Shown here: piece by piece, positions 3,155-35,434 of the stretch
How positions within the stretch are numbered: the first letter of the stretch is position 1
How the letters are laid out: each line of letters begins with the position of its first letter
Source of the DNA: a bacterium UBP14_UBA6098
GTDB taxonomy: Bacteria > UBP14 > UBA6098
Direction of reading: 5' to 3'
Assembly: GCA_002428525.1 (NCBI GenBank)
Contig: DIWU01000032.1
Location: 1,269 to 65,268, forward strand
Length of the DNA: 64,000 nt
Position numbers and translations under genes: made by a program
The notes under the pieces: generated by a model
Told to the model about the DNA's origin: nothing
The model's database searches: none
Seen by the model: only the letters and a program-made list of their open reading frames with translations

Positions 3155-3961
3155 ATGCGAGTCCTTTTCATCGGAGATATCTTCGGAAAACCCGGCAGGA
3201 TGGCCCTTTATGAGTATCTTACTGCGCTGAAGGAGGATTATTCGCCCGATTTCACCGTCGCAAATGCCGAGAATATCGCCGGCGGTTTCGGGATTACGGA
3301 CAATCTCTGCAAGAAGATATTCAAATACGGTGTCGATGTTATCACTACCGGCAATCATGTATGGGACAGGCCCGAGGCGGATGAGTTTCTCCAGAGGGAG
3401 AGGTTGATCCTTCGGCCTATTAATTTCCCCGAGGGAACTCCGGGATTCTCTTCGGCGATCGTCGAGAAGAGCGGAGGCCCGAAACTGGCGGTGATCAACG
3501 CTCAGGGGCGGATATTCATGCGCGCTATCGACGACCCCTTCAGAACTGTGCTTGCCGAGGTCGAGAGGCTCAGAGAGATAACACCCAATATACTTATCGA
3601 TTTCCACGCCGAGGCCACCTCCGAAAAGATGGCGATGGCCTATTTCCTCGACGGCAAGGTCAGCGCGGTTCTCGGAACACATACTCATGTCCAAACCGCG
3701 GACGAGCGCATCCTCGAACACGGCACCGCCGCAATTACCGATGCCGGCATGACCGGCCCTCACGATTCGATCATCGGGGTCAAATCCGAGCTTGCGCTCA
3801 AATTCGCGATGTCGGGGCGCAATGTCCGCTTCTCCCCCGCCGAGGGCAATGTCCGAATTCAGGGATGTATAGTCGATATCGAAGAGGCCACCGGCAAAGC
3901 CCAATCGATCGAAAGAATAGATATTAGCGTCGAGACAAATTTAAGTTCGGGAGAAGGGTGA
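3155..3961 (+). CDS. ymdB: YmdB-family metallophosphoesterase (2',3'-cyclic nucleotide phosphodiesterase-like)
   Basis: MRVLFIGDIFGKPGR...GNHVWD is the TIGR00282 signature. rny-ymdB synteny is conserved. Confidence 0.8.
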   Translation: MRVLFIGDIFGKPGRMALYEYLTALKEDYSPDFTVANAENIAGGFGITDNLCKKIFKYGVDVITTGNHVWDRPEADEFLQRERLILRPINFPEGTPGFSSAIVEKSGGPKLAVINAQGRIFMRAIDDPFRTVLAEVERLREITPNILIDFHAEATSEKMAMAYFLDGKVSAVLGTHTHVQTADERILEHGTAAITDAGMTGPHDSIIGVKSELALKFAMSGRNVRFSPAEGNVRIQGCIVDIEEATGKAQSIERIDISVETNLSSGEG

Positions 3962-4845
3962 TGTCAAACTCAAGCGAAGTGCTTTACACAAATCTCGGAA
4001 GAAAGCCCGATTATTCGGGAAAGGTGCGGGATATTTACGAACTCGGCGATAGGCTGATGATCGTCGCCACCGATAGGCTCAGCGCCTATGACCGAATCCT
4101 CCCGAATGGAATCCCCGAAAGAGGCAAAATCCTCACCGAGATGAGCGTCTTTTGGTTCAATATGATGTCGCCGCTCGTCCCAAATCACCTGATCTCGGCC
4201 GATGTGGCCGATTTTCCGCCCGAAATCGCAAAATACCGCGATCAGCTCGAAGGCCGGACGATGCTTTGCCGTAAAGCCCAAAGAGTCGATATCGAGTGCG
4301 TCGCGCGTGGATACCTCGCAGGTAGCGGATGGAAAGAGTATCGCCAGACCGGAAAGGTATGCGGTATCGAACTTCCCCCCGGGCTTCGCGAGTCGGATAG
4401 GCTCCCCGAGCCGATCTTCACGCCCGCAACCAAGGCCGAACAGGGCGAGCACGACATCAATATCTCGGTCGAACGGGCTGGAGAGCTTGTCGGAACCGAA
4501 CTTGCCTATCAGCTGAAAAAACTTACACTCGATATCTACTCCAAAGCCGCCGAGTTCGCTCTCTCGAAGGGTATTATAATCGCCGACACAAAGTTCGAGT
4601 TCGGCTTCATCGAGGGCAAACTCAGCCTCATAGACGAAATCCTCTCGCCCGACAGCAGTCGCTTCTGGGACGCGGAAACCTATGCCCCCGGCAAACCCCA
4701 AGACAGTTTCGATAAGCAGTTCGTCCGCGATTGGCTCACGAAAACAGGCTTCACCGGCGATGGAACTCCCCCCTCGCTTCCCAGCGAAGTCGTCCAAGGA
4801 ACACTCGAAAGATACTCGCAAGTCCGCGATCGATTGATAGGCTGA
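3958..4845 (+). CDS. purC: phosphoribosylaminoimidazole-succinocarboxamide synthase (SAICAR synthetase)
   Basis: GKVRDIYE...DRLSAYD... is the PurC signature. The gene overlaps the ymdB stop by 4 nt. Confidence 0.9.
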   Translation: MMSNSSEVLYTNLGRKPDYSGKVRDIYELGDRLMIVATDRLSAYDRILPNGIPERGKILTEMSVFWFNMMSPLVPNHLISADVADFPPEIAKYRDQLEGRTMLCRKAQRVDIECVARGYLAGSGWKEYRQTGKVCGIELPPGLRESDRLPEPIFTPATKAEQGEHDINISVERAGELVGTELAYQLKKLTLDIYSKAAEFALSKGIIIADTKFEFGFIEGKLSLIDEILSPDSSRFWDAETYAPGKPQDSFDKQFVRDWLTKTGFTGDGTPPSLPSEVVQGTLERYSQVRDRLIG

Positions 4846-4857
4846 CCGAAACCACCC

Positions 4858-4980
4858 CGCGTGCGGCGTCGGCCCGACCGAAGGTCGGCGCGGGGCGATC
4901 GAGAGGTAATTTCCAACAATAAGCGATCTGCGCCTCGACCGCCCCGCCGGCGTCCGAAGGACGCGCCGACGCCGCACGCG
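4858..4980. other. GC-rich nested inverted-repeat element (16-bp closing stem around two GAA-loop hairpins)
   Basis: CGCGTGCGGCGTCGGC (4858-4873) pairs with GCCGACGCCGCACGCG (4965-4980). Inner hairpins are CCGACC-GAA-GGTCGG (4874-4888) and GCGTCC-GAA-GGACGC (4950-4964). No T-tract follows. Confidence 0.5.
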
Positions 4981-5092
4981 ATCGCCGCAAGCTGTCGAGT
5001 TTATATCCAAAACCGATTTTGCTTGACTTTTTTTTATTAAAGAGTAGTTTTGCTTTCCGAAAAATAACAAATTTATGTTAAGAGAGGTTGAG

Positions 5093-6013
5093 ATGAAACG
5101 CGACTTTTTATCGATCGACGACTTGAATGCTAAGGAGATAAAGGATATCCTCGCCGGCGCGAAGGTTTTGAAGCACATGTCGAGTTGGGGCGACAACAGG
5201 CGTCCTCTCGAGGGGAAATCTGTTGCGCTTATCTTCCGCAAGCCGAGCCTCAGAACACGCGTCAGCTTCGATGTCGGTGTTTCGCAGTTCGGCGGACATC
5301 CGATAGTTATCTCGGACGCCGAGATCGGAATGGGCAAGCGCGAAACGGTGCATGATATTGCGAAGGTTCTTTCGCGTTATGTTTCCATGATCGTGATTCG
5401 CACCTTCGAGCAATCCGAGGTCGAGGAGTTGGCGAAGTATGCCGATGTTCCGGTTATCAACGCCTTAACGAATCTCCTTCATCCTTGCCAGATTATGGGC
5501 GATGCGCTTACAATCATGGAGCACAAGGGTTCTATCGACGGCATGAAGATCGCCTATGTCGGCGACGGCAATAATATTGTAAATAGCTGGTTGAATTTTG
5601 CAAAGAAGATCAAGATCGACCTTCGAATCGGGACCTCGGCCAACACGCATCCGGATACCGCAATCCTTTCGGCGGCGAAGGCGGCGGGTATGAGCCAGAT
5701 CACTCTCACTCACGACCCGATCGAGGCTGTGCGGGATGCCGATGTCGTTTATACAGATGTTTGGGCGAGTATGGGCGAGAAGGAAAGGGCCGCTGAAAAG
5801 GCCGCTCAGCTCGGAAATTTCCAGATTAACAGTGAGCTTATGAAAAACGCGTCACCGAACGCTATCGTGCTCCATTGTCTTCCGGCGGAACGCGGCCGAG
5901 AGATCACAGACGAGGTTATCGACGGACCGCAAAGCGTCGTCTTCGACGAGGCAGAAAACAGGCTTCATATACAGAAGGCGATTATGCAGTTCTTGACTAC
6001 CGGATTAGTCTAA
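5093..6013 (+). CDS. argF: ornithine carbamoyltransferase
   Basis: It has the SLRTR carbamoyl-phosphate motif, HPCQ and HCLPA motifs. The start was set to ATG 5093, which follows AGAGAGG. Confidence 0.9.
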   Translation: MKRDFLSIDDLNAKEIKDILAGAKVLKHMSSWGDNRRPLEGKSVALIFRKPSLRTRVSFDVGVSQFGGHPIVISDAEIGMGKRETVHDIAKVLSRYVSMIVIRTFEQSEVEELAKYADVPVINALTNLLHPCQIMGDALTIMEHKGSIDGMKIAYVGDGNNIVNSWLNFAKKIKIDLRIGTSANTHPDTAILSAAKAAGMSQITLTHDPIEAVRDADVVYTDVWASMGEKERAAEKAAQLGNFQINSELMKNASPNAIVLHCLPAERGREITDEVIDGPQSVVFDEAENRLHIQKAIMQFLTTGLV

Positions 6014-8116: not shown

Positions 8117-8236
8117 GGGGGCTTCGGGCGAGCATGCTCGCACCGAAGCGGTCGGCGAACAATCTCGCAAGAACTGAAATCGCCGAGCCGACCGCTTCGG
8201 GCTGATCTGCGTATTCGCAGATCAGCCGAAGCCCCC
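8117..8236. other. highly structured GC-rich intergenic element (nested stems)
   Basis: The outer stem GGGGGCTTCGG (8117-8127) pairs with CCGAAGCCCCC (8226-8236). Inside are the palindrome GCGAGCATGCTCGC (8128-8141), a 14-bp stem (8143-8156 with 8187-8200) and a perfect 11-bp hairpin GCTGATCTGCG-TATT-CGCAGATCAGC (8201-8226). Confidence 0.55.
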
Positions 8237-8288: not shown

Positions 8289-10502
8289 TTATTCGGATGG
8301 TTTTAGGGCGAATTTATTGCCCTGTTCGAAGGAAAGGCGTATTCGCGAGTCGAGGGCGGTGCACCTATGGCTCGATTCTGATCGACCGATGGCGATAGAC
8401 AATGCCGAGGGCTGGCCGACTAATACACAAAGGCGTTTTGCGCGGGTGATCGCGGTATATAAAAGATTTCTATTTAAAAGGATGAAATGCTCTTTGTAAA
8501 CCGGCATCACAACGCAGGGGACCTCTCCCCCTTGCGACTTATGGGCGGTGATCGCATAGGCCAAAACGATATCCTCGGCCGAGTCGCGGTCATATGTCAC
8601 AAGGCGATTGAAATCGACTGTTAAAGAATCCTTTGTGATGGATTCTACGAAACCTATATCGCCGTTGAAAACATTAAGGTCGTAATTATTGCGGGTTTGC
8701 ATCACTTTGTCGCCCTGAAAAAACCTTGAATCGGATCGCTTATCGGCGAAATTTAGCTCTCGGCGTAGCGATTCGTTGAGGGCGTTGGCTCCGCAGATGC
8801 CCTTATACATTGGGACAATGACCTGAATATCGCGTATCGGGTCCAGACCGTATGTTTTCGGCAACCGCCTCGACACTAAGTCAACTATCGTTTTCAGGCC
8901 TGCTTCTCGGTCTTCTTCATGGATGAAAAAGAAGTCGCCGGAGGGGTCGTTGCGAAGATCGGGCATTCTGCCATTGATAATATTGTAAGATTCATGTATA
9001 ATTCTGCTTTTCTCGGCTTGTCGGTGTATCGATTCGAGCCTGACAACCGGAACTTTACCGCTCGAGATGATATCCGACAGAACCTGTCCCGGACCGACAC
9101 TCGGGAGCTGATCGGCGTCGCCGACGACGATAACGCGCGTTCCGGGCTTCAAGGCCGTAAGTAACGAAGAAAGAAGCTCGATATCGACCATGCTCGCTTC
9201 GTCGAGGATCAGCATTCCGGTGTCGAGTGTTCGGCCTTGGCCGTATTTGAATCCTTGTCCGGGCGTCCATTCTAAAAGCCTGTGAATCGTGAAAGCCTCG
9301 TGGTCGGTGGTCTGCGAAAGCCTATTCGCGGCCCTTCCGGTCGGGGCGCATAGTAGCGGCTGAAAAGAGGCTTTTCGCGCCAACGAGACTATTGCTTCGA
9401 TAACAGTAGTTTTGCCGGTTCCGGGGCCGCCGGTTATCACTGAAACACAATTTTCGCATAAACCCGACTCCACCGCGGCCCTTTGCTCTCGTGTAAAGAC
9501 AATCCCCCTTTCGCGTTCGAAGGCCTCAAGGCGCTTTTCCACTTCCTCCCTCGGCAACGACCTCGACGGGTTGCGCGCCAATAATGCGAGGGCTTCGGCG
9601 GATTGGATCTCTGCACGATAAAGCGATGGCGGATAGACCCTGTCCTGATCGGCGATCAGCTTTCCCGAAAGCGCTAACACCTCTATAGATTTAGCGATCG
9701 GGGCGCGGTCGAGGCCGAGCAAGCTCGATGCGTTGTCGGCGAGCGCATAACTCGGAACAAAGCAATGGCCGTCCTCGGTGGCTTTTTTTAGGGTATATAG
9801 AACACCGGCGCGGATTCTCGAGGGCGAGTCCTTCGGCGTGTTCATCTTCTTCGCGATTTTATCGGCGATCTGAAAGCCGATTCCCTCCATCTCGTCCGCG
9901 AGCCTGAAGGGATCGCGCGAAAGGATATCGAGCGCCGCGCCCTTATATTTGCTGTAAATCTTTCGAACCTTTGCCGGGCCTATGCCCTCACCGAGCAGTC
10001 TTATCGAAAGCTCGCGAATGATCTGCGCCTCTCGGTCCTCCGCGGTAATCGCCTTACATATAGATTCGGCCTTTTTCTTGCCGATTCCCTCGACCTCGAG
10101 AAGCCTCTCCGGATGTTCGCGAATTATCTCGAGGAGGTTTTCGCCGAAATGGGACACCAATCTCGCGGCAAACTTCGGCCCTATCCCCTCGATCAGGTCG
10201 CTTGCGAGGTATTTTTTCAAGGACTCCAGACTATCCGGCTCGGCAACCGTGAAACTATCGACAACAAACCTGAAGCCCCAACCCTCCTTCATTTCCCATT
10301 TGCCCGAAAGCAAGAGCCGTTCGCCCGGAGTTCTTCTGCCGAGCGAACCGACAGCATCCAAAACTCCGCCTTTGCCGGTCTTCAGCTTGATCACGGAATA
10401 ACCGTTCTCTTCGTTGTAGTAAACAACACGCTCGACCGACCCGGATATCTTTTCAGCCCCGGTTTTCCCGCCATCGTTTTTCATGATTGAAAAATACTGC
10501 AT
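8289..10502 (-). CDS. recD2: RecD2-type ATP-dependent DNA helicase (SF1B, RecD-like)
   Basis: It has an N-terminal OB/SH3-like region, HhH motifs, Walker A GGPGTGKTT and a C-terminal UvrD-like part. The start was placed at MQYF (10502), so the tool ORF is over-extended. Confidence 0.85.
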   Translation of the reverse strand: MQYFSIMKNDGGKTGAEKISGSVERVVYYNEENGYSVIKLKTGKGGVLDAVGSLGRRTPGERLLLSGKWEMKEGWGFRFVVDSFTVAEPDSLESLKKYLASDLIEGIGPKFAARLVSHFGENLLEIIREHPERLLEVEGIGKKKAESICKAITAEDREAQIIRELSIRLLGEGIGPAKVRKIYSKYKGAALDILSRDPFRLADEMEGIGFQIADKIAKKMNTPKDSPSRIRAGVLYTLKKATEDGHCFVPSYALADNASSLLGLDRAPIAKSIEVLALSGKLIADQDRVYPPSLYRAEIQSAEALALLARNPSRSLPREEVEKRLEAFERERGIVFTREQRAAVESGLCENCVSVITGGPGTGKTTVIEAIVSLARKASFQPLLCAPTGRAANRLSQTTDHEAFTIHRLLEWTPGQGFKYGQGRTLDTGMLILDEASMVDIELLSSLLTALKPGTRVIVVGDADQLPSVGPGQVLSDIISSGKVPVVRLESIHRQAEKSRIIHESYNIINGRMPDLRNDPSGDFFFIHEEDREAGLKTIVDLVSRRLPKTYGLDPIRDIQVIVPMYKGICGANALNESLRRELNFADKRSDSRFFQGDKVMQTRNNYDLNVFNGDIGFVESITKDSLTVDFNRLVTYDRDSAEDIVLAYAITAHKSQGGEVPCVVMPVYKEHFILLNRNLLYTAITRAKRLCVLVGQPSALSIAIGRSESSHRCTALDSRIRLSFEQGNKFALKPSE

Positions 10503-10696: not shown

Positions 10697-13174
10697 ATGG
10701 ACGAGAATTATATTGGCGACGTAATGCCGGTCGATATCGAAGATGAGATGCGTAGAAGCTACATCGATTATGCGATGAGCACAATCATCAGCCGCGCCCT
10801 GCCGGATGTCACCGACGGACTGAAACCGGTGCACCGCAGGTGCCTTTATGCCATGTTCGACATGGGAATCCTGCACAACCGCTCCCATGTCAAATCCGCA
10901 AGGCTTGTCGGCGAGGTCATGGGTAAATACCACCCGCATTCGGACTCCGCTATCTACGACACCGTTGTCAGGCTGGCACAGGATTTCCGAATGAGATACC
11001 CGCTCGTCGATGGGCAGGGCAATTTCGGCTCGATCGACGGCGACCCCGCGGCCGCCACGCGATATACCGAGGTTCGCATGGCGAGGATCGCAGAGGAGCT
11101 TCTTCAAGATATCGACAAAGAGACGGTCGATTTCGTCCCAAACTACGACAACTCGCTTACAGAGCCCATGCTCCTTCCCGCGAGATTCCCTAACTTCCTC
11201 GTTAACGGCAGTTCCGGCATCGCGGTAGGCATGGCCACCAATGTTCCGCCTCACAACCTTGTCGAGGTATGCGATGCTGTAATCCATCTCGTCGATCATC
11301 CGGACGCCACGATCAAAGACCTCATGCAATTCGTCCTCGGGCCGGATTTCCCGACCGGCGGAGTTATACTCGGGACCAGAGGGATCAGGGAGGCCTACGA
11401 AACAGGCAGAGGCTCTATAGTCATGCGAGCGCGAGCCTTCATCGAGCCGGTTCACAAGGGCACCAAAGAGGCGATTATCGTCAACGAGATCCCCTATATG
11501 GTCAATAAATCGACACTCATCGAGCAGATCGCAGATCTTGTCAAGGATAAAAAAATCGAATCGATCTCGGATATTCGCGACGAATCCGACCGCGAGGGAA
11601 TGCGTATCTATATCGAACTCAAACGCGGCGAGAATGCGCAAGTCGTTCTCAATAAACTCTTTAAGATGACACGCCTCACCGAGAACTTCGGTGTCATTAT
11701 GCTCGCTATCGACAAAGGCGTGCCGAAAGAAATGAACCTAAAAGAGGTGCTTAAGGCCTATGTCGAGCATCGCCGACAGGTTATCATAAGAAGAACGATC
11801 TTCGATCTGCGCAAAGCGAAAGAACGCGCTCATATATTGAAGGGGCTCGCTATCGCCCTTCAAAATATCGATTTGGTTGTCAAGATAATAAAAGAGTCCA
11901 GAACCGTCGGAGAAGCCTCCGAAACGCTACAGGCTAAGCTCGGCCTATCGGAGATTCAGGCCAAGGCCATCCTCGATATGCGGCTCGCGCGCCTCACCGG
12001 CCTCGAGCGCGACAAGATTATCTCCGAGCTCGAGGATATTTTGAAGCTCATCGAGTATTTGCAGGGCATCCTCGACGACGAGACCAAGGTCATGGACTTG
12101 ATCAAAGCGGATATGGCCGACATCAAAGAAAAATTCGGCGACAAGCGCCGGACCCAGATCGTTCCGAACTTCGAGGAGATGTCCGCCGAGGATTTCATCG
12201 TCGATGAGGAGGTCGTCGTCAGTGTGACGCACCGGGGTTATATCAAACGCACCCCGACGAGTATCTATCGCCAACAACACCGCGGCGGAAAGGGCATTCA
12301 GGCAATGGGCACCCGCGACGAGGATTTCGTCGAAAAGCTCTTCACCGCAACAAACCACGACACTATACTTCTCTTCAGCTCGAGCGGAAAGGCTTATTCG
12401 CTCAAGGTTTACGAGATCCCCGAGGCCTCGAGGACAGCCCGCGGCATGGCGATCGTCAATCTGATCGGCCTCGCCGGCGGCGACAGCATCGCGAGCTGTT
12501 GCAAAATTCGGGACTATGAGGAAGAAAAGGATATTATCTTCGCGACTGCAAAGGGCAAGGTTAAACGGACATGCCTGTCCGAATATGTCAACGCCAAGAA
12601 AACCGGCGTCATCGCGATAAATGTCAACGACGGCGACCGCCTTATCTCGGCGGAGCTGGTCGATGAGCCGGATCGCGAGATTCTGCTCTTCACCCGCGAG
12701 GGTATGTGTATTCGCTTCAATGTCGAAGAAGTCCGCCAGATGGGCCGTTCCGCTCAGGGGGTCATCGGAATCGGTCTTCGAGATAAGGACGAGCTTGTCG
12801 CGATGATCGCCCTCACGCCCGAGGGCAAGATCCTCACCGCGACCGAGAAGGGCTATAGCAAACGTAGCAATCTCGAGGAATACCGCCAACAACACCGCGG
12901 CGGTGTCGGCATTATAGGCCATAAGATCACTCCGAAAACCGGCGGGGTCGTTGCGGCACTTCAGGTAAACGAGGACGAGGAGATTATCGTCATCACCTCC
13001 GAGGGAGTCCTGCTACGCACCACTGTCTCGAGCATCAGCGAATACGGCCGATCGACGCAGGGCGTCAAGCTCATGCGCGTGCCGGCCGGACACGCAATCT
13101 CGGGGGTTGCCAGAGTGATGGACAACGACGAGGAACCGGCCGATGAGACCGATCAAACCGAGTTGGATGTTTAA
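10697..13174 (+). CDS. gyrA: DNA gyrase subunit A
   Basis: SYIDYAMS...[16 protein letters not shown] and the active-site Tyr region are present, with C-terminal beta-pinwheel repeats. The protein is 825 aa. Confidence 0.95.
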
Positions 13175-13935: not shown

Positions 13936-14098
13936 CTCGTCCTTTCGCGTCAAATTTTTACTTCAAAAATATAAAGACTTATTGGCGACTTTGCAAAGCC
14001 TTTCTGAGGAAAATACGCCGGGGATACCCTGCGATTCGATTTGCATATTCGGGAAAAAGTATATATATTTGATAGATTTTAACTTGAAGGAGCGGACG

Positions 14099-15281: not shown

Positions 15282-16238
15282 ATGAGTGTAAAAGTAATAT
15301 CTGAGCTTCTTCAGGCCGAATCGGCCGCAATCGCAAACCTCGTCGGAAAAATCGAGGGGCAGATAGTAAGCGCCGCAGACCTCTGCAGTTCATGCTCCGG
15401 TCGCATAATCGTAATGGGCCTCGGCAAAAGCGGCCTCGTCGGCCGCAAGATCGCCTCAACTCTGGCCTCGACTGGAACATCGAGTGTCTTTATCCACGCC
15501 GCTGAGGCGCTCCACGGCGATTTGGGCATGATAACCGATCGCGACTGCGCAATACTTATATCGAAAAGCGGTTGCACGCCCGAAACACTGATGCTGATCC
15601 CGCCGTTAAAGCGTTTGGGCGTGAAAATAATTGTCATCACCGGGAATCCGGCCTCGCCGGCGGCCAAAGAGGCCGATGTAGTCCTCGATATAGGCGTTTC
15701 AACCGAGGCCGAACCGATAGGCGTCGTCCCGACGACCTCGACTACTGTGACTATGGCCATCGGCGATGCGCTCGCTATCGCGCTTATGACGCGAAAGGGT
15801 TTCTCGAAGTCCGATTTCGCCCAGATACATCCGGCCGGCAACCTCGGAAGCCTTTTGAAGCGAGTCTCAGAGGTGATGCACACTGGGAATGCAATTCCAC
15901 AGGTGCCGCCATCGGCCTCGACCATGGAGGGGATATTAGAAATGAGCGAAAAGCGCCTCGGGCATGTTTTAGTGGTCAAAGAAGGGAAACTGCTCGGGAT
16001 CTTCTCCGACGGCGACCTGCGAAGAGCGCTTCAAGCGCATCCTAACGAGGACATCACCTCGCTTTCGATAACCGCCCTCGCCACAGCCGGACCTAAAACA
16101 ATCGACGCCGGTGCTCTCGTCGAGGAGGCGGTCCGGACAATGGAGACGAAGAAGATCACAGCATTGCCCGTGCTTTCGGACGGTCTTCTCGTCGGAATAG
16201 TGCATCTTCATGATATTTTATCTGCGAGGGCCGTTTAG
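15282..16238 (+). CDS. kdsD: KpsF/GutQ-family arabinose-5-phosphate isomerase (SIS + tandem CBS)
   Basis: The SIS domain (GLGKSGLVGRKIASTLASTG) is followed by two CBS domains. Confidence 0.85.
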   Translation: MSVKVISELLQAESAAIANLVGKIEGQIVSAADLCSSCSGRIIVMGLGKSGLVGRKIASTLASTGTSSVFIHAAEALHGDLGMITDRDCAILISKSGCTPETLMLIPPLKRLGVKIIVITGNPASPAAKEADVVLDIGVSTEAEPIGVVPTTSTTVTMAIGDALAIALMTRKGFSKSDFAQIHPAGNLGSLLKRVSEVMHTGNAIPQVPPSASTMEGILEMSEKRLGHVLVVKEGKLLGIFSDGDLRRALQAHPNEDITSLSITALATAGPKTIDAGALVEEAVRTMETKKITALPVLSDGLLVGIVHLHDILSARAV

Positions 16239-17690: not shown

Positions 17691-17725
17691 CAATATTCAG
17701 ACTCAAATACAGCAGACTTGAACAA

Positions 17726-19222
17726 ATGATGAATGACAACAACTACATTCAACAAAATGGGCAATTATCCCGATCTGTAGTTTCTGGTGGTATATGGATT
17801 ACATTATCTAAGATATTACAACATAGTTTAAATTTCATTAGGACAATAACACTTGCTCGTTTGCTCTCTCCAGACAACTTCGGCCTTTTCGGCATAGCAA
17901 TGCTCGCGCTTACAGCAATAGATAAATTTTCTTTCACTGGTTTCGATCAAGCACTGATTCAGAAAAGAGAGAATATTGAGCCTTATCTCGATTCTGCATG
18001 GACTATTCAGGTTATTCGCGGTTTAATCTTAGGATTATTATTGTTTTGCACAGCACCTCTTGTCGCGAAATTCTTCCATGAACCGCAGGTTACATTACTA
18101 TTAAAAGTTCTGGGCTTTTCAATTTTCATTGGAGGTTTCAGAAACATAGGTATCGTGTTTTTCCATAAGAATATCCAGTTCAATAGAATGTTTATATATG
18201 AATTAAGTGGTACAATAACTGATTTTGGAGTCGCGCTAACTGCCGCCATTATATTGCGTAACGCATGGGCGCTAGTCTTTGGTTTCACGGCAAGGAATAT
18301 TGTCCAAACAATTGTTTCGTATGTCATCCATCAATATAAACCGCGCTTTAAAATTAATTGGAAGCATACAAAGGACCTCTTGAGTTTCGGCCAATGGATT
18401 TGGGGTAGCACGATACTGATATTTCTGCTAACTCAAGGAGACGATATTTTAGTTGGAAAGATACTTGGAACAACAGCGTTAGGGTTTTACCAAATGGGAT
18501 ATAAAATCTCGAACCTTCCAGCTACAGAGATTACTCATGCCCTTTCGCAAGTGATTTTCCCAGCCTATTCAAGACTGCAGGACAATATTCCAAAGCTTAG
18601 AGCCGCTTTCTTGAGAGTTTTCCAAATGATGACATTTATCACCTTTCCAATTGCGATACTGATATTCGTCCTCGCGCCAGATTTTACTATTGTTTTTCTC
18701 GGCGAAAAATGGATGCCTATGGTGCCGGTGATGAAAACACTATGCTATTTTGCTGTTATTAGGACGATTAATTCTGTGTTTTCAGCTGTGTTAACTGCAT
18801 TGGGCAAGCCGCGTATTTCAACGATAGGATCGTTTTTCCAATTGATATTATTCGTAATAATTGTGTATCCATTGATAATAAACTTCGGACTAGTTGGTGT
18901 AGCTTATGCCACTATTATCCCGAATGCTTTCTTCCTGATATATATCGGCATCAGGCTACTGAAAGAAATTGACACACAGTTTTCAAAGCTGTTGAGTGTT
19001 ATCCTTCCATCGATTGCGGGATGTCTATCAACTTATTTATCTGTAACCTTTGTGAATAATACGTTTTCTTTTAATGCCTCTGTGATCTCCATTATTTCAC
19101 TCGCTATTTTAGGGGGTGGAGTATATATTGTTGTTGTTTATTTGTCGGATATTCTAACAAAGGGAAGTCTTACTAATAGTGTTAAACAGATTCTTTTATA
19201 TAAACGAGCGGATTTATTATGA
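17726..19222 (+). CDS. Wzx-like polysaccharide flippase (MOP/PST family), low-GC copy
   Basis: The protein is 498 aa, multi-TM and AT-rich. Its stop overlaps the next start (ATGA). Confidence 0.7.
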   Translation: MMNDNNYIQQNGQLSRSVVSGGIWITLSKILQHSLNFIRTITLARLLSPDNFGLFGIAMLALTAIDKFSFTGFDQALIQKRENIEPYLDSAWTIQVIRGLILGLLLFCTAPLVAKFFHEPQVTLLLKVLGFSIFIGGFRNIGIVFFHKNIQFNRMFIYELSGTITDFGVALTAAIILRNAWALVFGFTARNIVQTIVSYVIHQYKPRFKINWKHTKDLLSFGQWIWGSTILIFLLTQGDDILVGKILGTTALGFYQMGYKISNLPATEITHALSQVIFPAYSRLQDNIPKLRAAFLRVFQMMTFITFPIAILIFVLAPDFTIVFLGEKWMPMVPVMKTLCYFAVIRTINSVFSAVLTALGKPRISTIGSFFQLILFVIIVYPLIINFGLVGVAYATIIPNAFFLIYIGIRLLKEIDTQFSKLLSVILPSIAGCLSTYLSVTFVNNTFSFNASVISIISLAILGGGVYIVVVYLSDILTKGSLTNSVKQILLYKRADLL

Positions 19223-19902
19223 GCGATGAACTAAATAAATTCAACGAAGCATATACCGGTAACAGGCCGGATGTCCAACAATTGATTCCCGATAATGTTC
19301 AGAGGGTTCTGGATTGTGGTTGTAGTGTAGGCGCTCTCGGGGAAGAGATCGCAAAAAGGCCTAATAAACCCGAGGTCTGCGGGATAGAATTAGACGAACA
19401 AACTGCACAAATCGCTAAGAGTAAGTTAGATCGTGTCATTATCGGAAATCTCGACACGATCGATTTCGCGGAACACTTCCAAAAGGGATACTTCGATTGT
19501 ATAATATTCTCCGATGTGCTCGAACATACACAAGACCCATGGGGTATTCTAAAGAATGCAATGCCTTTTCTAAACAACGATGGTTTCGTGATAATCAGTA
19601 TTCCAAATATTCGTCACTACACCACGATATGCAATCTAATCTTTCGCGATTATTGGCCATATAGAGAAAGAGGTCTTCACGATAAAACACACCTAAGGTT
19701 CTTCACGCTTAAAAGTATTAAAGAACTATGTGAAAATGCCGGCCTCCAAATCCAAAGATTGGAACGCAATTATCGGATCTACGAAAGGCCACATTATAGG
19801 AACAGGTTCGCGAAATACTTAGCCATCCCGTTCTTGCGCGGTTTTCTTGTTTTCCAGTATCTCATTGTCGCAAAAAAAAGAGGGCCGCATGGCGGGGAAT
19901 AG
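19219..19902 (+). CDS. class I SAM-dependent methyltransferase
   Basis: Motif I is VLDCGCSVG and motif II is DCIIFSDVLEH. Confidence 0.75.
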   Translation: MSDELNKFNEAYTGNRPDVQQLIPDNVQRVLDCGCSVGALGEEIAKRPNKPEVCGIELDEQTAQIAKSKLDRVIIGNLDTIDFAEHFQKGYFDCIIFSDVLEHTQDPWGILKNAMPFLNNDGFVIISIPNIRHYTTICNLIFRDYWPYRERGLHDKTHLRFFTLKSIKELCENAGLQIQRLERNYRIYERPHYRNRFAKYLAIPFLRGFLVFQYLIVAKKRGPHGGE

Positions 19903-20956
19903 AAAAACTACAATGAGACTTAAAATATCCTCATACTTGAGGAGAATAGCATCTAAAGAAAAAAATTCATTTTCGGAGAAGCTCGCACTTTTTGCACGAG
20001 CTATTTATTTGAAGCTAAAAAGTGTGTATAAAGCTATCATGCTGTCAATGTCGAAAAGTAACTCAAAAATGGTCTCAAGGCTTTACCTGAAGCAAAGAAG
20101 TTTCATGAGAGCCAAGCTTGAAGGGCGCTATTCTTTCGTCACAATCGACGAACTCGTTCTGTGGACGATGGATTGGATTAAAACCAACAAAATCGACCAC
20201 GACATTATTGTCGGAATACCGCGGAGCGGATTATTAGTCGCTAATATACTGGCATTAAAACTTGGGAAACCTTTATCTACGCCGGAGCTTTTCGTGCAAG
20301 GTTCCCTCTGGAATAGCAAGTATATTGAATTAACCGAAAACATTAAGAGTGTTCTATTGGTCGATGACACAGTTAGTTCGGGTAAAACTCTGGATGATAA
20401 TCTGCAAGTTATACTCCCCTATTGCGAAAAACGAGGAATTTCGATTACCAAAGCGGCTCTTATCGTTACCGACGAAGCGCTTTCTTCAGTGGATGCTTTC
20501 TATAAGATCCTTCCTCAACCGAGGCTATTCGAATGGAACTTGATGCACTCCAAAAAGGGGATTATTTGTTCGGATATGGACGGCGTTATATGTGAAAATT
20601 GTCCTCCCGGCGTGGATGCCGATGAAGACCGGTATCTCGAGTGGCTCGATAATGCAAAGCCATATATGATACCTGCTTTTGAAATCGATGTTATTGTTTC
20701 GGGGCGTCTGGAAAAGTATCGGGAGCAAACAGAACATTGGCTCAAAAAATATAAAGTCCGATATAAAGAGCTTTGCCTTTGGGATTTGGAATCCAAAGAA
20801 CTAAGATTAGGCAATTATGTTAAACATAAAATCGATGTAATCTTGAAGACAAAGCCGGATATGGTATTCGAAAGCGAGCATAACCAAGCTGAAGAGATAT
20901 GGAAAGCTACTCATGTCACTACAATATGCACTGACGATATGATTATCTTCTCATAA
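19889..20956 (+). CDS. fusion of an N-terminal type I phosphoribosyltransferase domain and a C-terminal HAD-like phosphatase domain
   Basis: The PRPP-binding motif is VLLVDDTVSSGKTL (PRTase). HAD motif I is SDMDGV, with a downstream S/T and Lys. The start is uncertain (19889 or 19913) and the tool ORF is over-extended. Confidence 0.6.
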   Translation: MAGNRKTTMRLKISSYLRRIASKEKNSFSEKLALFARAIYLKLKSVYKAIMLSMSKSNSKMVSRLYLKQRSFMRAKLEGRYSFVTIDELVLWTMDWIKTNKIDHDIIVGIPRSGLLVANILALKLGKPLSTPELFVQGSLWNSKYIELTENIKSVLLVDDTVSSGKTLDDNLQVILPYCEKRGISITKAALIVTDEALSSVDAFYKILPQPRLFEWNLMHSKKGIICSDMDGVICENCPPGVDADEDRYLEWLDNAKPYMIPAFEIDVIVSGRLEKYREQTEHWLKKYKVRYKELCLWDLESKELRLGNYVKHKIDVILKTKPDMVFESEHNQAEEIWKATHVTTICTDDMIIFS

Positions 20957-21171
20957 TACATTCAAAGAAGAGGATATATTGCAAATTCGTCTGACAAGCT
21001 TGATAATCCATGGGTTAATAATCGACAAAGAACACTTCGAGAAATAGAGTGAGTATTCTTTGAGAATCTTCAGAAACATAAATAAACTTGGCCAAAAACC
21101 CCATAATCAGCTTAAGTTCTGTAGATATCCATACGACATCTCTTCCATAATCAAAGAGGTGTATATTTGAT

Positions 21172-22293
21172 ATGAAGATACTCTTTACCACAGGAAGGAT
21201 ACATCAAATCGGAGGCGGTGCTGAAAGATCGGCGACGACTCTCATAAGAAAACTATCTGAAAAGCATCATGTATGTGTGTTCAATATAGTATTTGAACCA
21301 CAGCCTGAAAAGAATCCAGGGCTTATAGGAAGCAACATCGAGATAATCGACTGGAATTTCCCCATAAAGACAAAGAAAACTCTTAGAATGCCATATCACG
21401 CCAGATTACTCTCCTGCGATATTCAAGCACAGAGGGAACTTAACAAGATAGCGAGAAACTTCCAGCCGGAAATTGTAATAGCTCAGAAACCTCCTGTGGT
21501 ATATGAAGATCCTATTCCGAGCAATAAAGCACCAATCATCACATTTGTTAGAGATACGGAGTATTTAGACCCATTCAACATAGAACATAAGTGTTTTATT
21601 CATTACAACACCCTATTTATGAAATTAAGGCAAAAAAGGATGCTAAAATTATTGAAAAAAAGTAACTTGCTTATTGTCGCAAGTGATTTTATGCGGGAGA
21701 AGCTCAATGGATTCGGCTTGTCCGCTGAGGTCGTTCCACCCTTTATTGAATTTGAAAAATATGCCTCTAACCCTGCGGGTGATAGAGATTCCATTACAAT
21801 GATAGCCGCAAATCTTGCAAAACATAAAGGGGTAGATATCTTTTTGCGTATTGCTGAGAAGTGTCCCGATTTGAAGTTTCTGTTGGTAGGGCGTTTGCCA
21901 GAAGAGCATGGAGATTTGCCTTCCAATGTTGTCCATTTGAGATGGACAGACGATATCAAGTCGATACTTGCGAAAACGATGCTTCTTCTTGTTCCGTCCC
22001 GCTGGGAAGAACCTTTTGGTAGATTGCCGGTAGAGGCGGGAGTTAACGGCATTCCCTCTATTGCAAGCAACAGAGGAGGGCTGGTCGAAGCCGTTGGAGA
22101 AGGAGGTATATTGATTCAAAATTACGAGGATATCGACCTTTGGGTTGAGGCAATTACAAGTGTTCTCAATAATTCTGCTATATATAACTCTCTGTCAAAA
22201 AACGCTATAGAGAATGCTAATCGTTTTGAATTTTGCTATTCTTATGCTAAATTTACATCTTTGGTAAAAGAGTATTTTGGGATTGAGCTGTGA
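21172..22293 (+). CDS. GT4-family glycosyltransferase (GT-B, retaining)
   Basis: The EX7E motif is EPFGRLPVEAGVNGIPSIAS. The gene is AT-rich. Confidence 0.8.
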   Translation: MKILFTTGRIHQIGGGAERSATTLIRKLSEKHHVCVFNIVFEPQPEKNPGLIGSNIEIIDWNFPIKTKKTLRMPYHARLLSCDIQAQRELNKIARNFQPEIVIAQKPPVVYEDPIPSNKAPIITFVRDTEYLDPFNIEHKCFIHYNTLFMKLRQKRMLKLLKKSNLLIVASDFMREKLNGFGLSAEVVPPFIEFEKYASNPAGDRDSITMIAANLAKHKGVDIFLRIAEKCPDLKFLLVGRLPEEHGDLPSNVVHLRWTDDIKSILAKTMLLLVPSRWEEPFGRLPVEAGVNGIPSIASNRGGLVEAVGEGGILIQNYEDIDLWVEAITSVLNNSAIYNSLSKNAIENANRFEFCYSYAKFTSLVKEYFGIEL

Positions 22294-22384
22294 AATCGGC
22301 CGCAGTTTATTCCCTTTGGTTTTTGTCGTTTATTAAGTCCATTAAAACAGTAATGAATACATCTTGTATTTCAAGGCGGAGTTC

Positions 22385-23494
22385 ATGAGAATAGCAATCG
22401 ACATTTCTACATTGTGTAGATCGCGGACTGGCGTAGCACTATTCACATATTATACATTGCGTGAGCTTACACTTATTGATAATTCCAATACGTACTTTCT
22501 CTATGTTAATAAGGCCGTTTCCCTCGATTTCCCTCTGCCGCCGAACTTCTTCATCCGCCCGACGCAGATCCCCTTGCCGCAGTTCCAGCTGTGGTTTCAC
22601 ATCGGCCTGCCGATGTTTTTGCGAAGTGATAAAATCGACATCTTCCACGGGACGAATTTCCTCATCCCGCCTTTCCCCGGGTGCAAGACGGTCTCGACGG
22701 TTCACGACCTTTCGAGCCTTGTTATGCCATCACAACATAAGACTTTTCATCGAATCTCTCACGGCCTTTTCCTCAAAAACTCTATGCGCAGAGCGGATGC
22801 GATTATCGCAGTCAGCGAGTTCACGCGGAGCGAGATTTCCCGCCTCTTTCCCGAAATGTCTGATAAGACTGTCGTTATTCACGAGGCAGTATCGCCGGAA
22901 TTTCGGGCAATAGAAGATGTCGCCCTATTGCGCAATATCAGCGAAAAACACGGCCTCCCCGAACGCTTCATTCTCTTCGTCGGCACGCTGGAGCCGAGGA
23001 AAAACATCGAGGGCCTCATGCGAGCGTTCGCTGGAATCAAGGGCCAAATTCCCCATAAACTCGTTATCGTCGGCGGAAGGGGTTGGAAGTTCTCCGGAAT
23101 ATTCGATCTGGTGAAAAGGCTCGATATCGAGGATGATATAATTTTCACCGATTATGTCCTCGCAGGGGATCTCCCGGTGATATACAACCTCGCTGATATT
23201 TTCTGCTATCCATCTTTTTACGAGGGCTTCGGACTGCCGGTGCTCGAGGCGATGGCCTGTGGAACTCCGGTGTTGACCTCTAATGTCAGCTCCTTGCCGG
23301 AGGTCGCCGGGAATGCGGCCCTACTATTCGACCCCCGTTCACCGGAGGATATCGCGGAGAGGATAATTCAGCTGGCCAATAACGAGACCCTCCGCGCGGA
23401 GCTTTCCAAAGCGGGCCTTCGACGCGCGTCCGAATTCTCTTGGGCGGATACCGCGAAAAAAACACTCGAGACCTACCGCCGCGCCCTCGAATAA
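22385..23494 (+). CDS. GT4-family glycosyltransferase
   Basis: EGFGLPVLEAMACGTPVLTS is present. The start is ATG 22385 after AAGGCGGAG. The first ~40 codons are AT-rich and the rest is GC-rich. Confidence 0.8.
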   Translation: MRIAIDISTLCRSRTGVALFTYYTLRELTLIDNSNTYFLYVNKAVSLDFPLPPNFFIRPTQIPLPQFQLWFHIGLPMFLRSDKIDIFHGTNFLIPPFPGCKTVSTVHDLSSLVMPSQHKTFHRISHGLFLKNSMRRADAIIAVSEFTRSEISRLFPEMSDKTVVIHEAVSPEFRAIEDVALLRNISEKHGLPERFILFVGTLEPRKNIEGLMRAFAGIKGQIPHKLVIVGGRGWKFSGIFDLVKRLDIEDDIIFTDYVLAGDLPVIYNLADIFCYPSFYEGFGLPVLEAMACGTPVLTSNVSSLPEVAGNAALLFDPRSPEDIAERIIQLANNETLRAELSKAGLRRASEFSWADTAKKTLETYRRALE

Positions 23495-23576
23495 AGACCC
23501 TCTTTTCCCACTTGTTAATAAAGCCGAATTTTATATATTACTATAGAAACTTTCTATCGAGCTATTTGGAGGAACG

Positions 23577-33790: not shown

Positions 33791-35173
33791 ATGAAAAATA
33801 CAAATCCCCTTCTCGTTCCGGAACTTCGCGAACTGCTCGCGACGAAGGACGGCAAAACAATCCGCGATCTCTGCGAGACAGGCCATCCGGCTAATGTCGC
33901 GGATCTGATCTCCCCGCTCGAGCCTAAAGAGGTTTGGGCGATCCTCGAGTATTTGAACTCAGAGCTTCGAGCCGAGATTTTCCGGCATTTAGACGAGGAT
34001 GTTCAAATCGAAATAATGGAGGATCTCCCCCGAAAGGAGGTTGCCCATATACTCGCCGAGATGCACCCCGACGACAGAGCCGACCTTTTCAAACAGCTTC
34101 CCGAAAGCCTTCAGGAATCGGTCCTTCCAGCCATGGCACAAGCCGAACGCGAGGATATTCGCAGGCTGATCTCCTTCCGTGAAGGAACCGCGGGGGCCGT
34201 GATGACCTCCGATTACGCCGCTCTTCCTCCGCAACTCACTGCCGCGCAAGCGATAGACAGGCTTCGAGAGGTCGCACCCGACAAAGAAACGATCTACTAT
34301 GCTTATGTAGTCGATGACGAGCGCAAATTGCTCGGTTATGTTTCCTTGAAAGACTTGATCATCGCGCGGAGGGATGCGAGAGTCGAGGCGATTATGCAAA
34401 CCGAAGCAGTTTACTGCCGTGTTGACGACGACCAAGAGGACGCCGCGAGGAAGATCCAAAAATACGACCTTTTGGCACTGCCGGTCCTCAACGGCGGCGA
34501 CGCGCTCGTCGGCATCATCACTCATGACGACGCCCTCGATATCATCACTCAAGAGCATACCGAGGATATGGAGAAATTCATGGCGATCGCGGGGAGCCAC
34601 GAGGATTCGGTTTATATTAAAACCTCGGCTTGGAGGCATTTCAAGAACCGCGCTCCGTGGGTCGTGCTCCTCGCTATCCTCGGACTTTTATCGGGGTTTA
34701 TCGTGCAGTCGTTCGAGGGCCTTCTTTTTCAGTTTGCGATACTCCTCACATTCATGCCGATGCTCGCCGCTACCGGCGGTAACACCGGTAGCCAAGCCGC
34801 TTCCCTCGTTGTGCGAGCCCTCGCACTCCGCGAAATCCACCCGAGGGATATCCTCGGGATATTAACTAAGGAATTCCAAGTCTCACTGATGCTCGCTATA
34901 TTGCTCGGTGTAATTGCCTTCGCCAGAGTGATGATCTTCGAAGGCAACGCCAATACCCCCGGAAACTCACTCCTAACAGTGGGTTTAGCGATATCTATCG
35001 CCCTCGGGCTTCAAGTTATAACCTCGACTCTCATCGGAGCGCTTCTTCCACTCGGAGCCGCAAAACTCAAACTCGACCCCGCGGTGGTTGCAAGCCCGGC
35101 ACTTACAACCATCGTCGATATTACAGGCCTCCTCATCTTCTTCCTCACAGCGAAAACAATGCTCAGTATATAA
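33791..35173 (+). CDS. mgtE: magnesium transporter MgtE
   Basis: It has the MgtE N domain, tandem CBS domains and a C-terminal 5-TM domain with PMLAATGGNTGSQA. Confidence 0.9.
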   Translation: MKNTNPLLVPELRELLATKDGKTIRDLCETGHPANVADLISPLEPKEVWAILEYLNSELRAEIFRHLDEDVQIEIMEDLPRKEVAHILAEMHPDDRADLFKQLPESLQESVLPAMAQAEREDIRRLISFREGTAGAVMTSDYAALPPQLTAAQAIDRLREVAPDKETIYYAYVVDDERKLLGYVSLKDLIIARRDARVEAIMQTEAVYCRVDDDQEDAARKIQKYDLLALPVLNGGDALVGIITHDDALDIITQEHTEDMEKFMAIAGSHEDSVYIKTSAWRHFKNRAPWVVLLAILGLLSGFIVQSFEGLLFQFAILLTFMPMLAATGGNTGSQAASLVVRALALREIHPRDILGILTKEFQVSLMLAILLGVIAFARVMIFEGNANTPGNSLLTVGLAISIALGLQVITSTLIGALLPLGAAKLKLDPAVVASPALTTIVDITGLLIFFLTAKTMLSI

Positions 35174-35434
35174 ACTTCAGCCCCTTCGTTCAGGGGCGTC
35201 GGGATTTCGGCGGCCTCCGGAAAGCTCGCTTTCCTCTGGCCGTCGAAATCGCCGTCGAGCCGGAGCACGATCGCGCCCATAACTCCTCTATCGTCCCGGC
35301 CCGACGGCCCGCGCATGCGCGACCGACGCCCCGAAGCGCGGAACATGATCTGTTCAAACCACTAATCTCTTGGGCGATGAACATTTGTGGAGGTCCGAAG
35401 CGGAATTTGAAAATCTATTATTAATAATAATGGC

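Follow-up and report, generated by a model that had tools for sequence, protein, structure and literature searches.

A predicted four-way-junction palindrome after purC and its sibling extragenic elements in a Zixibacteria genome

We analysed a stretch of 64,000 nucleotides (hereafter the window), whose encoded proteins have their nearest named relatives in candidate division Zixibacteria. A GC-rich inverted-repeat element of 123 bases, here called E1, occupies the spacer between purC and argF, and two sibling elements, E2 and E3, occur farther along (Table 1). The distance from the preceding stop codon is 12 nt for E1 (purC), 52 nt for E2 (recD2) and 19 nt for E3 (mgtE), and each element precedes an AT-rich region upstream of the next gene; E3 lies 102 nt before cmk. 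The gene block argF-comM-orf114 has E1 at one edge and E2 at the other. The GC content of the elements is 0.64-0.72, compared with 0.53-0.55 in their flanks, and intergenic spacers in the window other than the elements are mostly between 0.2 and 0.45. We dismissed an open reading frame at 4861-5040 on inspection, as it is an Arg-rich read-through of the GC-rich palindrome. Elsewhere in the window, positions 17700-23500 form a low-GC island (0.39-0.40, versus 0.54 elsewhere) that encodes two Polysacc_synt flippases, a methyltransferase, a PRTase-like protein and two GT4 glycosyltransferases, and is probably a horizontally acquired polysaccharide cluster.

Table 1. Genes, elements and element parts at the purC locus, elsewhere in the window and in related genomes. 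Positions are those of the window unless another source is named.
Feature	Position	Strand	Description
purC	3961-4845	+	PF01259; last gene of the co-directional zapB-like/zapA/rny/ymdB/purC block
E1 closing stem, 5' arm	4858-4873	+	CGCGTGCGGCGTCGGC; family core GCGTCG at 4866-4871
E1 hairpin 1	4874-4888	+	CCGACC-GAA-GGTCGG; abuts the closing stem, 0 unpaired bases between
E1 central hairpin	4890-4947	+	GCGGGGCG (4890-4897)/CGCCCCGC (4940-4947); TCGAG (4899-4903)/CTCGA (4934-4938); AT-rich distal loop
E1 hairpin 3	4950-4964	+	GCGTCC-GAA-GGACGC
E1 closing stem, 3' arm	4965-4980	+	GCCGACGCCGCACGCG
argF promoter block	5013-5053	+	CGATTTnnCTTGAyTTT; TTGACT at 5023-5028; TAGTTTTG at 5045-5052
argF	5093-6013	+	OTCase
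E2	8117-8236	-	Closing stem 8117-8126/8227-8236 (GGGGGCTTCG/CGAAGCCCCC); hairpins 8128-8141, 8143-8200, 8201-8226
E3	35193-35332	+	Closing stem GGGGCGTCGG/CCGACGCCCC (35193-35202/35323-35332); hairpins 35203-35250, 35251-35308, 35310-35321
L087 element	10904-11027 (L087)		E2 orthologue; between convergent purC and recD2; MAG GCA_023145965.1 (PurC 75%, ArgF 88% identity)
L110 element	8949-9151 (L110)		200-nt version, inserted between rny and ymdB
Core, E1			GCGGCGTCGGC
Core, E2			GGGGGCTTCGG; one substitution
Core, E3			GGGGCGTCGG
Core, L087			GGGGCGCGTCGA
Core, L110			CTGGCGTCGCGC

The original prediction described a nested inverted repeat 3' of purC, closed by a perfect 16-bp stem and containing two 6-bp hairpins with GAA loops, and direct reading of the bases bears out each of these features. 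The 3' arm of E1 is the exact reverse complement of the 5' arm, and the two arms form the longest inverted repeat within 300 nt anywhere in the window. Hairpins 1 and 3 are identical at 11 of 15 positions in the same orientation, and their four differences make up two compensated pairs. The hairpins had been described as separated by a 56-nt linker, and a three-way-junction RNA had been suggested as one likeness. However, the intervening segment is 61 nt long (4889-4949) and forms a third, central hairpin, so E1 is predicted to fold into a four-way junction made of the 16-bp closing stem and three hairpins, with only three unpaired bases at the junction. The predicted minimum free energy (MFE) was -86.6 kcal/mol for plus-strand RNA (z = -5.3), -94.8 kcal/mol for minus-strand RNA (z = -5.2) and -55.3 kcal/mol for single-stranded DNA (z = -5.95). 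The fold was identical in all three cases, and none of 200 shuffled sequences reached the MFE of E1. By these predictions, the 123 bases are an almost perfectly self-pairing DNA segment with a four-armed junction.

When MFE was scanned in sliding windows over the 64 kb and corrected for GC, E1 and E2 stood out as the two strongest outliers, on both strands. The only sites for its 16-mer in the window are the two arms themselves, and the next best site has three mismatches. Because the sequence is identical across four independent assemblies (ENA, two from JGI, and Logan), we reject an assembly artefact as its source.

To our detector, which takes a perfect short inverted repeat as a seed, folds the region around it and retains cases in which the closing helix encloses at least three branches, E1, E2 and E3 were exactly the three clear outliers over 64 kb. 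Their MFE per nucleotide ranged from -0.62 to -0.69, compared with -0.51 or weaker for background candidates, and 73-75% of their bases were Watson-Crick paired, compared with at most 70%. Loci from other phyla, about 1.35 Mb in total, held about one comparable case. In E2 (z = -7.9 and -8.4), a long central hairpin with an AT-rich loop stands between a short hairpin and a further one, and E3 gave z = -6.6 and -4.8. Two further elements were found in relatives. The L087 element lies in the position of E2, and the L110 element sits in a rny-ymdB spacer of 335 nt that measures 3-121 nt in six other genomes. We interpret these as a small and previously undescribed family, with five members in four lineages, of extragenic palindromes that are defined by the four-way-junction fold and a 6-nt core, not by sequence repetition.

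The genome sequence searched for repetition came to about 76 kb (64 kb plus 2 kb plus 9.8 kb), and within it neither the 16-mer of E1 nor any element sequence has a second copy. The 9.8-kb extension contained no additional member, leaving three elements in the ~76 kb. Local and global alignment of non-orthologous members gave no significant similarity apart from the core. The suggestion that E1 is a REP-like unit thus holds for its position and palindromy, but not for a repeated sequence unit, and a search for further copies in the genome yielded siblings of like architecture in place of copies.

What recurs among the members, besides architecture, is a GCGTCG-type core in the closing stem, close to the junction. 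Each of the four independent lineages has GCGTCG in its closing 5' arm, and the consensus of the closing stem is approximately GGGGCGTCGG/CCGACGCCCC. Any 6-mer common to all four arms was obtained in 41 of 200,000 composition-preserving shuffles. Elsewhere in the window, GCGTCG is an unremarkable hexamer, occurring at 4.6e-4 per position. Neither the 16-mer of E1 nor pairs of GGGGCGTCGG and CCGACGCCCC were found beyond the five elements in the window and the collected Zixibacteria loci, and in about 1.7 Mb from other phyla the pattern GCGTCG...CGACGC gave many chance matches in high-GC genomes but no clean junction. The conservation of this core suggests recognition by a putative protein.

E2 and the L087 element are the sole pair of elements with significant global similarity (alignment z = 5.2, with none of 300 shuffles as good), and both lie in the same place after recD2. 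Of the 40 base pairs in their four helices, 24 are invariant, 12 have changed on both sides while remaining Watson-Crick, none has changed on one side only, and four are broken, all of them in the L087 central stem; these numbers come from one orthologue pair and depend on the register, with the closing stem showing three to six double changes by offset. Controls in which the register was slid gave zero to two double changes. From this comparison, the fold appears to have been maintained across a deep divergence (75% PurC identity).

Pairing in the family is almost purely Watson-Crick. On the plus strand, the five elements have 248 Watson-Crick pairs versus 12 G-U pairs, nine of which belong to L110; the remaining G-U pairs are mostly in distal central hairpins. 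Restricting the count to the three window elements and L087 gives 180 Watson-Crick pairs versus three G-U pairs. Together with the lack of one-sided changes, these near-pure stems point to a constraint or origin at the DNA level, and not to selection on RNA only. An excess of G-U pairs on the sense strand, used as a test for selection on RNA, was inconsistent across members, and for E1 the better-pairing strand disagrees with the sense strand. Several hairpins are also perfectly palindromic across the apex (with GCATGC in E2 at 8128-8141 and in E3 at 35310-35321, and with ATGCAT in L110 at about 8975-9005). Among the four-base loops, approximately three in eight are self-complementary, compared with an expected 1 in 16, which is consistent with an origin by fold-back or template switching.

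Unlike E2, E1 seems young and patchy. The closest relative, L086, has 89.5% nucleotide identity through purC and keeps the 5' arm of E1, hairpin 1 and the start of the central stem. Its homology to the window stops at about 4897, inside the central hairpin, where a convergent dinB-like gene follows, and the 3' arm is absent from the L086 contig. In this relative the stem of hairpin 1 is conserved but its loop is TAAA instead of GAA, so the GAA loops, which had been taken as a shared design, are not a conserved feature. Comparison with relatives, which had been proposed as a check, gave a divided answer: the orthologous purC-argF spacer of L089 (72% PurC identity), 107 nt long and AT-rich, has no element, and L086 keeps only the 5' half, but structural siblings exist at other sites of the genome. 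Nor is an element present upstream of argF in L113 and L114. We interpret E1 as younger or less constrained than E2.

Searches for additional orthologous regions gave few comparisons. The best PurC identity among the matches listed from GTDB genomes was 63%, which added no close relatives to the comparison. A metagenome search with RecD2 returned relatives of 40-48% only, and the 3' regions of their recD2 genes carry unrelated structures. A search with MgtE for an orthologue of E3 gave best matches of 72% from other phyla, none of them usable. The labels of these best non-self homologues of mgtE (33791-35173), the gene preceding E3, were Thermodesulfobacteriota, Bacillota, Syntrophorhabdus and Fermentibacteria, which hints at horizontal transfer of this gene.

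Position is, in our view, the strongest clue to a role, since the window elements and the L087 element sit where an operon transcript should end. The argF promoter block does not vary among the four Zixibacteria regions upstream of argF that were compared, and three of these lack an element. As this block lies 3' of E1, E1 belongs to the purC 3' region and, if the promoter is used, falls outside the argF leader. We favour, at a probability of roughly 45%, the reading that E1 is a lineage-specific REP/BIME-like extragenic palindrome that forms the structure at the 3' end of the purC operon mRNA. What the analysis shows is the structure, the family, the positions, the core motif and the compensatory evolution of one member. 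The elements, we infer, would be transcribed as the last part of an operon (in this case zapA-rny-ymdB-purC) and form the 3' end of its mRNA, where a very stable structure could block 3'-to-5' exonucleases, help to stop RNA polymerase, or both. Rho may act downstream where a U-tract is missing. The result would be a defined mRNA 3' end, with purC transcription insulated from the argF promoter, which lies 42 nt farther 3'.

There is precedent for such a role. In E. coli, transcripts that depend on Rho for termination have their ends immediately 3' of stable stem-loops, which have no U-tract and protect against PNPase and RNase II (PMC6061677), and most REPs follow a coding region and have unidirectional or convergent genes on either side (PMC3733652). 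The perfect stems may be kept both by selection on the fold and by symmetric mutation at the DNA level, either template switching or arm-to-arm conversion. Template switching has been documented to create and repair stems (PMC8794818), and the near-exclusivity of Watson-Crick pairs, the excess of double over single changes (12:0) and the palindromic apexes indicate that symmetric processes at the DNA level take part in making and repairing these stems.

Several observations count against a 3'-end role. E1 is dispensable in relatives, being absent from L089, L113 and L114 and present as a half in L086. The L110 member lies within an otherwise tight rny-ymdB junction, which would be an odd site for a terminator. 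The near-pure Watson-Crick pairing, with the DNA-level constraint or origin that it points to, a core suggestive of protein recognition and the mismatch between the better-pairing and the sense strand of E1 weigh in the same direction. In addition, this genome uses hairpin-plus-T-tract terminators at other sites. Since E1 and E3 lack a U-tract while canonical terminators are available, the elements are not the standard solution at operon ends but a minority. Textbook terminators at other operon ends were seen in the window at 577-603 and in L115 at about 14022-14062, 15727-15757 and 20005-20035; some are bidirectional, with flanking A and T tracts.

An alternative that we consider unlikely, but still worth weighing, is that the elements are non-autonomous mobile palindromes of MITE or REPIN type with no host function, inserted where intergenic DNA makes insertion safe. 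The GCGTCG closing stem would then be a terminal inverted repeat for a transposase or an HUH/tyrosine enzyme encoded elsewhere. Patchy presence fits this well, including the insertion between rny and ymdB in L110 and the missing E1 in L089, L113 and L114, as do a GC content 10-18 points above that of the flanks, the significant sharing of a core within the terminal inverted repeat, and near-pure Watson-Crick pairing that is symmetric at the DNA level. There are also known REP dimers that carry a CGTC tag and a structured spacer (PMC3733652). Mobility is harder to reconcile with the lack of significant similarity beyond the core among non-orthologous members, the single occurrence of every element in ~76 kb, the lack of a transposase in the neighbourhoods examined, and the direct reading of the insertion sites, where none of the five members has a visible target-site duplication. 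Moreover, E2 and the L087 element have been kept in place, with compensatory changes, since a divergence of 75% in PurC, which is unexpected of neutral selfish DNA. Less probable again is a by-product of mutation without function, in which nested perfect palindromes would arise and become homogenised when replication switches template or folds back at terminator hairpins already in place, and would be tolerated in intergenic DNA. The near-pure Watson-Crick stems with 12 double and no single changes, the perfectly palindromic apexes and the known ability of template switching to create or repair stems (PMC8794818) are all in line with such an origin, and the E2 closing stem followed by TTTT resembles an ordinary terminator whose loop has been filled. 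This leaves unexplained the shared GCGTCG core, the constant three-hairpin architecture in five members and the long persistence of E2.

We give about the same low weight to the elements being structure-defined recombination sites or fragile palindromes, at which crossover or breakage would insert, excise or rearrange gene blocks in an attC-like manner. Both synteny breaks around purC fall at elements. In the L087 MAG, argF-comM-orf114, the block exactly flanked by E1 and E2 in the window, is absent between purC and recD2, which a single element joins, and argF-comM is on another contig; the homology of L086, in turn, ends within the central hairpin of E1. Conservation of architecture and a short core, but not of sequence, would also suit a recombination site. 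On the other hand, operon ends are common rearrangement boundaries in any case, the sample is two breakpoints, and the outgroup L089 has purC and argF adjacent without an element. The L087 element looks wholly E2-like instead of an E1/E2 hybrid, there is no integrase nearby, and the genes concerned, unlike promoterless cassettes, have housekeeping functions and promoters of their own. A bolder version is, in our estimate, slightly less probable still. In this version, the elements would form a new class of DNA sites in Zixibacteria that are defined by structure and that, as four-way junctions in cruciform or single-stranded form with the GGGGCGTCGG/CCGACGCCCC stem, would be used by a putative recombinase, transposase or nuclease to move gene blocks such as argF-comM. 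By analogy, they might be a chromosomal counterpart of integron attC acting on housekeeping operons. Finally, since E1 lies upstream of argF on the same strand, it might be read as a cis-regulatory leader, riboswitch or small RNA for argF. This is very improbable: the conserved argF promoter block is 3' of E1 and is kept by three relatives without the element, E1 has no Rfam family at threshold, and its siblings follow the unrelated genes recD2 and mgtE. Given the conserved downstream promoter, we reject the argF leader or riboswitch reading.

Comparison with known families did not place the elements. A gathering-level scan of the window against Rfam 15 returned only a tRNA-Thr at 98-169, and ARAGORN likewise called a tRNA there only, with no tRNA-like call for the elements. 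E-value scans of E1, E2 and E3 gave only miRNA-hairpin models far below threshold; the best Rfam match of E1 was a plant miRNA hairpin model at 33 bits, compared with a gathering score of 168. The closest known system is that of REP/BIME and REPIN elements, and the nearest case within it is that of CGTC-tagged REPs in head-to-head dimers with structured spacers. REP/BIME elements resemble those described here as GC-rich intergenic palindromes mostly located 3' of genes, between co-directional or convergent genes, and their proposed roles are mRNA 3' stabilisation and termination. In REP dimers (Di Nocera 2013, PMC3733652), inverted units can pair into a larger structure, some with small stem-loops at both ends of the spacer, and in CGTC-tagged REPs a CGTC-containing motif flanks hairpins. 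The extragenic location typical of REPs is shared by E1-E3 and the L087 element, all 12-52 nt after a stop codon, with L110 as the exception. However, REPs are tens to hundreds of near-identical units of 20-40 bp, whereas each element here has its own sequence around a 6-nt core, and many copies were not found in ~76 kb. REPs are also associated with a RAYT (Y1 transposase) gene; over this ~76 kb, the gene tables and the scanned proteins contained no transposase. A fixed four-way junction with three hairpins is not a REP feature. The unit anatomy also differs. CGTC REPs have 8-9 bp stems initiated by A or T, loops of 4-5 nt, an unpaired tag and a CCA tail (PMC3733652), none of which occurs here. 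In our elements, CGTC is paired inside the closing stem, and the hairpins have 5-14 bp, are initiated by G or C, have loops of 3-4 nt and lack a CCA tail.

Similarities to termination signals are also partial. The Rho-dependent 3' ends of E. coli share with E1 a very stable stem-loop without a U-tract soon after the stop codon, but they are simple hairpins (some of them REPs) and not branched. The 80 nt 3' of E1 contain 15 C versus 14 G, and are thus not clearly C-rich and G-poor. The original prediction that E1 is not a canonical intrinsic terminator agrees with the absence of a T-tract immediately 3' of the element, where the sequence is ATCGCCGCAAGCTG, and with E1 being unlisted in a terminator scan. 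E1 is followed by AUCGCCGC and E3 by GAAGCGCG. Only E2 has a U-tract (UUUUG), with the closing stem GGGGGCTTCG followed by TTTTG on its sense strand, the minus strand, as in an intrinsic terminator. The L087 element, between convergent genes, is reminiscent of bidirectional terminators, and its pairing, if Watson-Crick only, would serve both strands. In contrast with intrinsic terminators, the "loop" here is approximately 100 nt and holds three more hairpins.

Among mobile and recombining systems, the closing stem resembles the terminal inverted repeat of a MITE and has a shared core. The copies here have no internal homology, and target-site duplications are visible at none of the five members. 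Integron attC sites lie 3' of genes, conserve structure and not sequence, and carry short core boxes in the closing stem. They differ in being single imperfect hairpins with extrahelical bases and RYYYAAC/GTTRRRY cores, located in arrays of promoterless cassettes by intI. The elements have the core GCGTCG/CGACGC and a branched fold, they adjoin housekeeping genes that have promoters of their own, and the gene tables contain no integrase. GC clusters and double-hairpin elements of fungal mitochondria are GC-rich multi-hairpin islands in AT-rich spacers with a patchy distribution among relatives. They are organellar and form sequence families, unlike the elements described here, and are not known to have a closing stem or four-way junction.

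If our interpretation is right, an uncultured phylum uses or tolerates extragenic palindromes whose identity lies in a branched fold and a 6-nt core, not in a repeated sequence. Elements defined in this way would be missed by repeat finders and Rfam-style searches. The E2 orthologue pair is also a clean natural example of stems evolving by double Watson-Crick changes only (12 versus 0, in one orthologue pair), a pattern relevant to whether helices are maintained by template switching. A protein that recognises the core, should there be one, would constitute a new DNA or RNA junction-binding system. As the elements coincide with synteny breakpoints, they are relevant to the assembly of MAGs and to the interpretation of gene order. 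Short-read contigs appear to break at these elements, and one assembly ends inside E1. That contig, the fifth from the same organism (L005, Logan SRR943313), stops at window position 4866, inside the closing stem, which suggests that coverage or assembly breaks at GC-rich palindromes.

Other palindromic structures were observed in the collected loci. A compact four-way junction of 68 nt is present at a distant recD2 locus (L093, 1979-2052), with CCGACAA/TTGTCGG occurring four times, and seems to belong to another multi-hairpin family. In the Zixibacteria relatives L113 (about 15-40) and L114 (about 2083-2103), argF is preceded by hairpins of similar form, GGGAGGG...CCCTCCC, which may be a small family of REP-like hairpins. 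In the expanded rny-ymdB spacer of L110, a separate simple hairpin, GGACGGTG-CTACAA-CACCGTCC, is found at 8910-8932, just 5' of the junction element.
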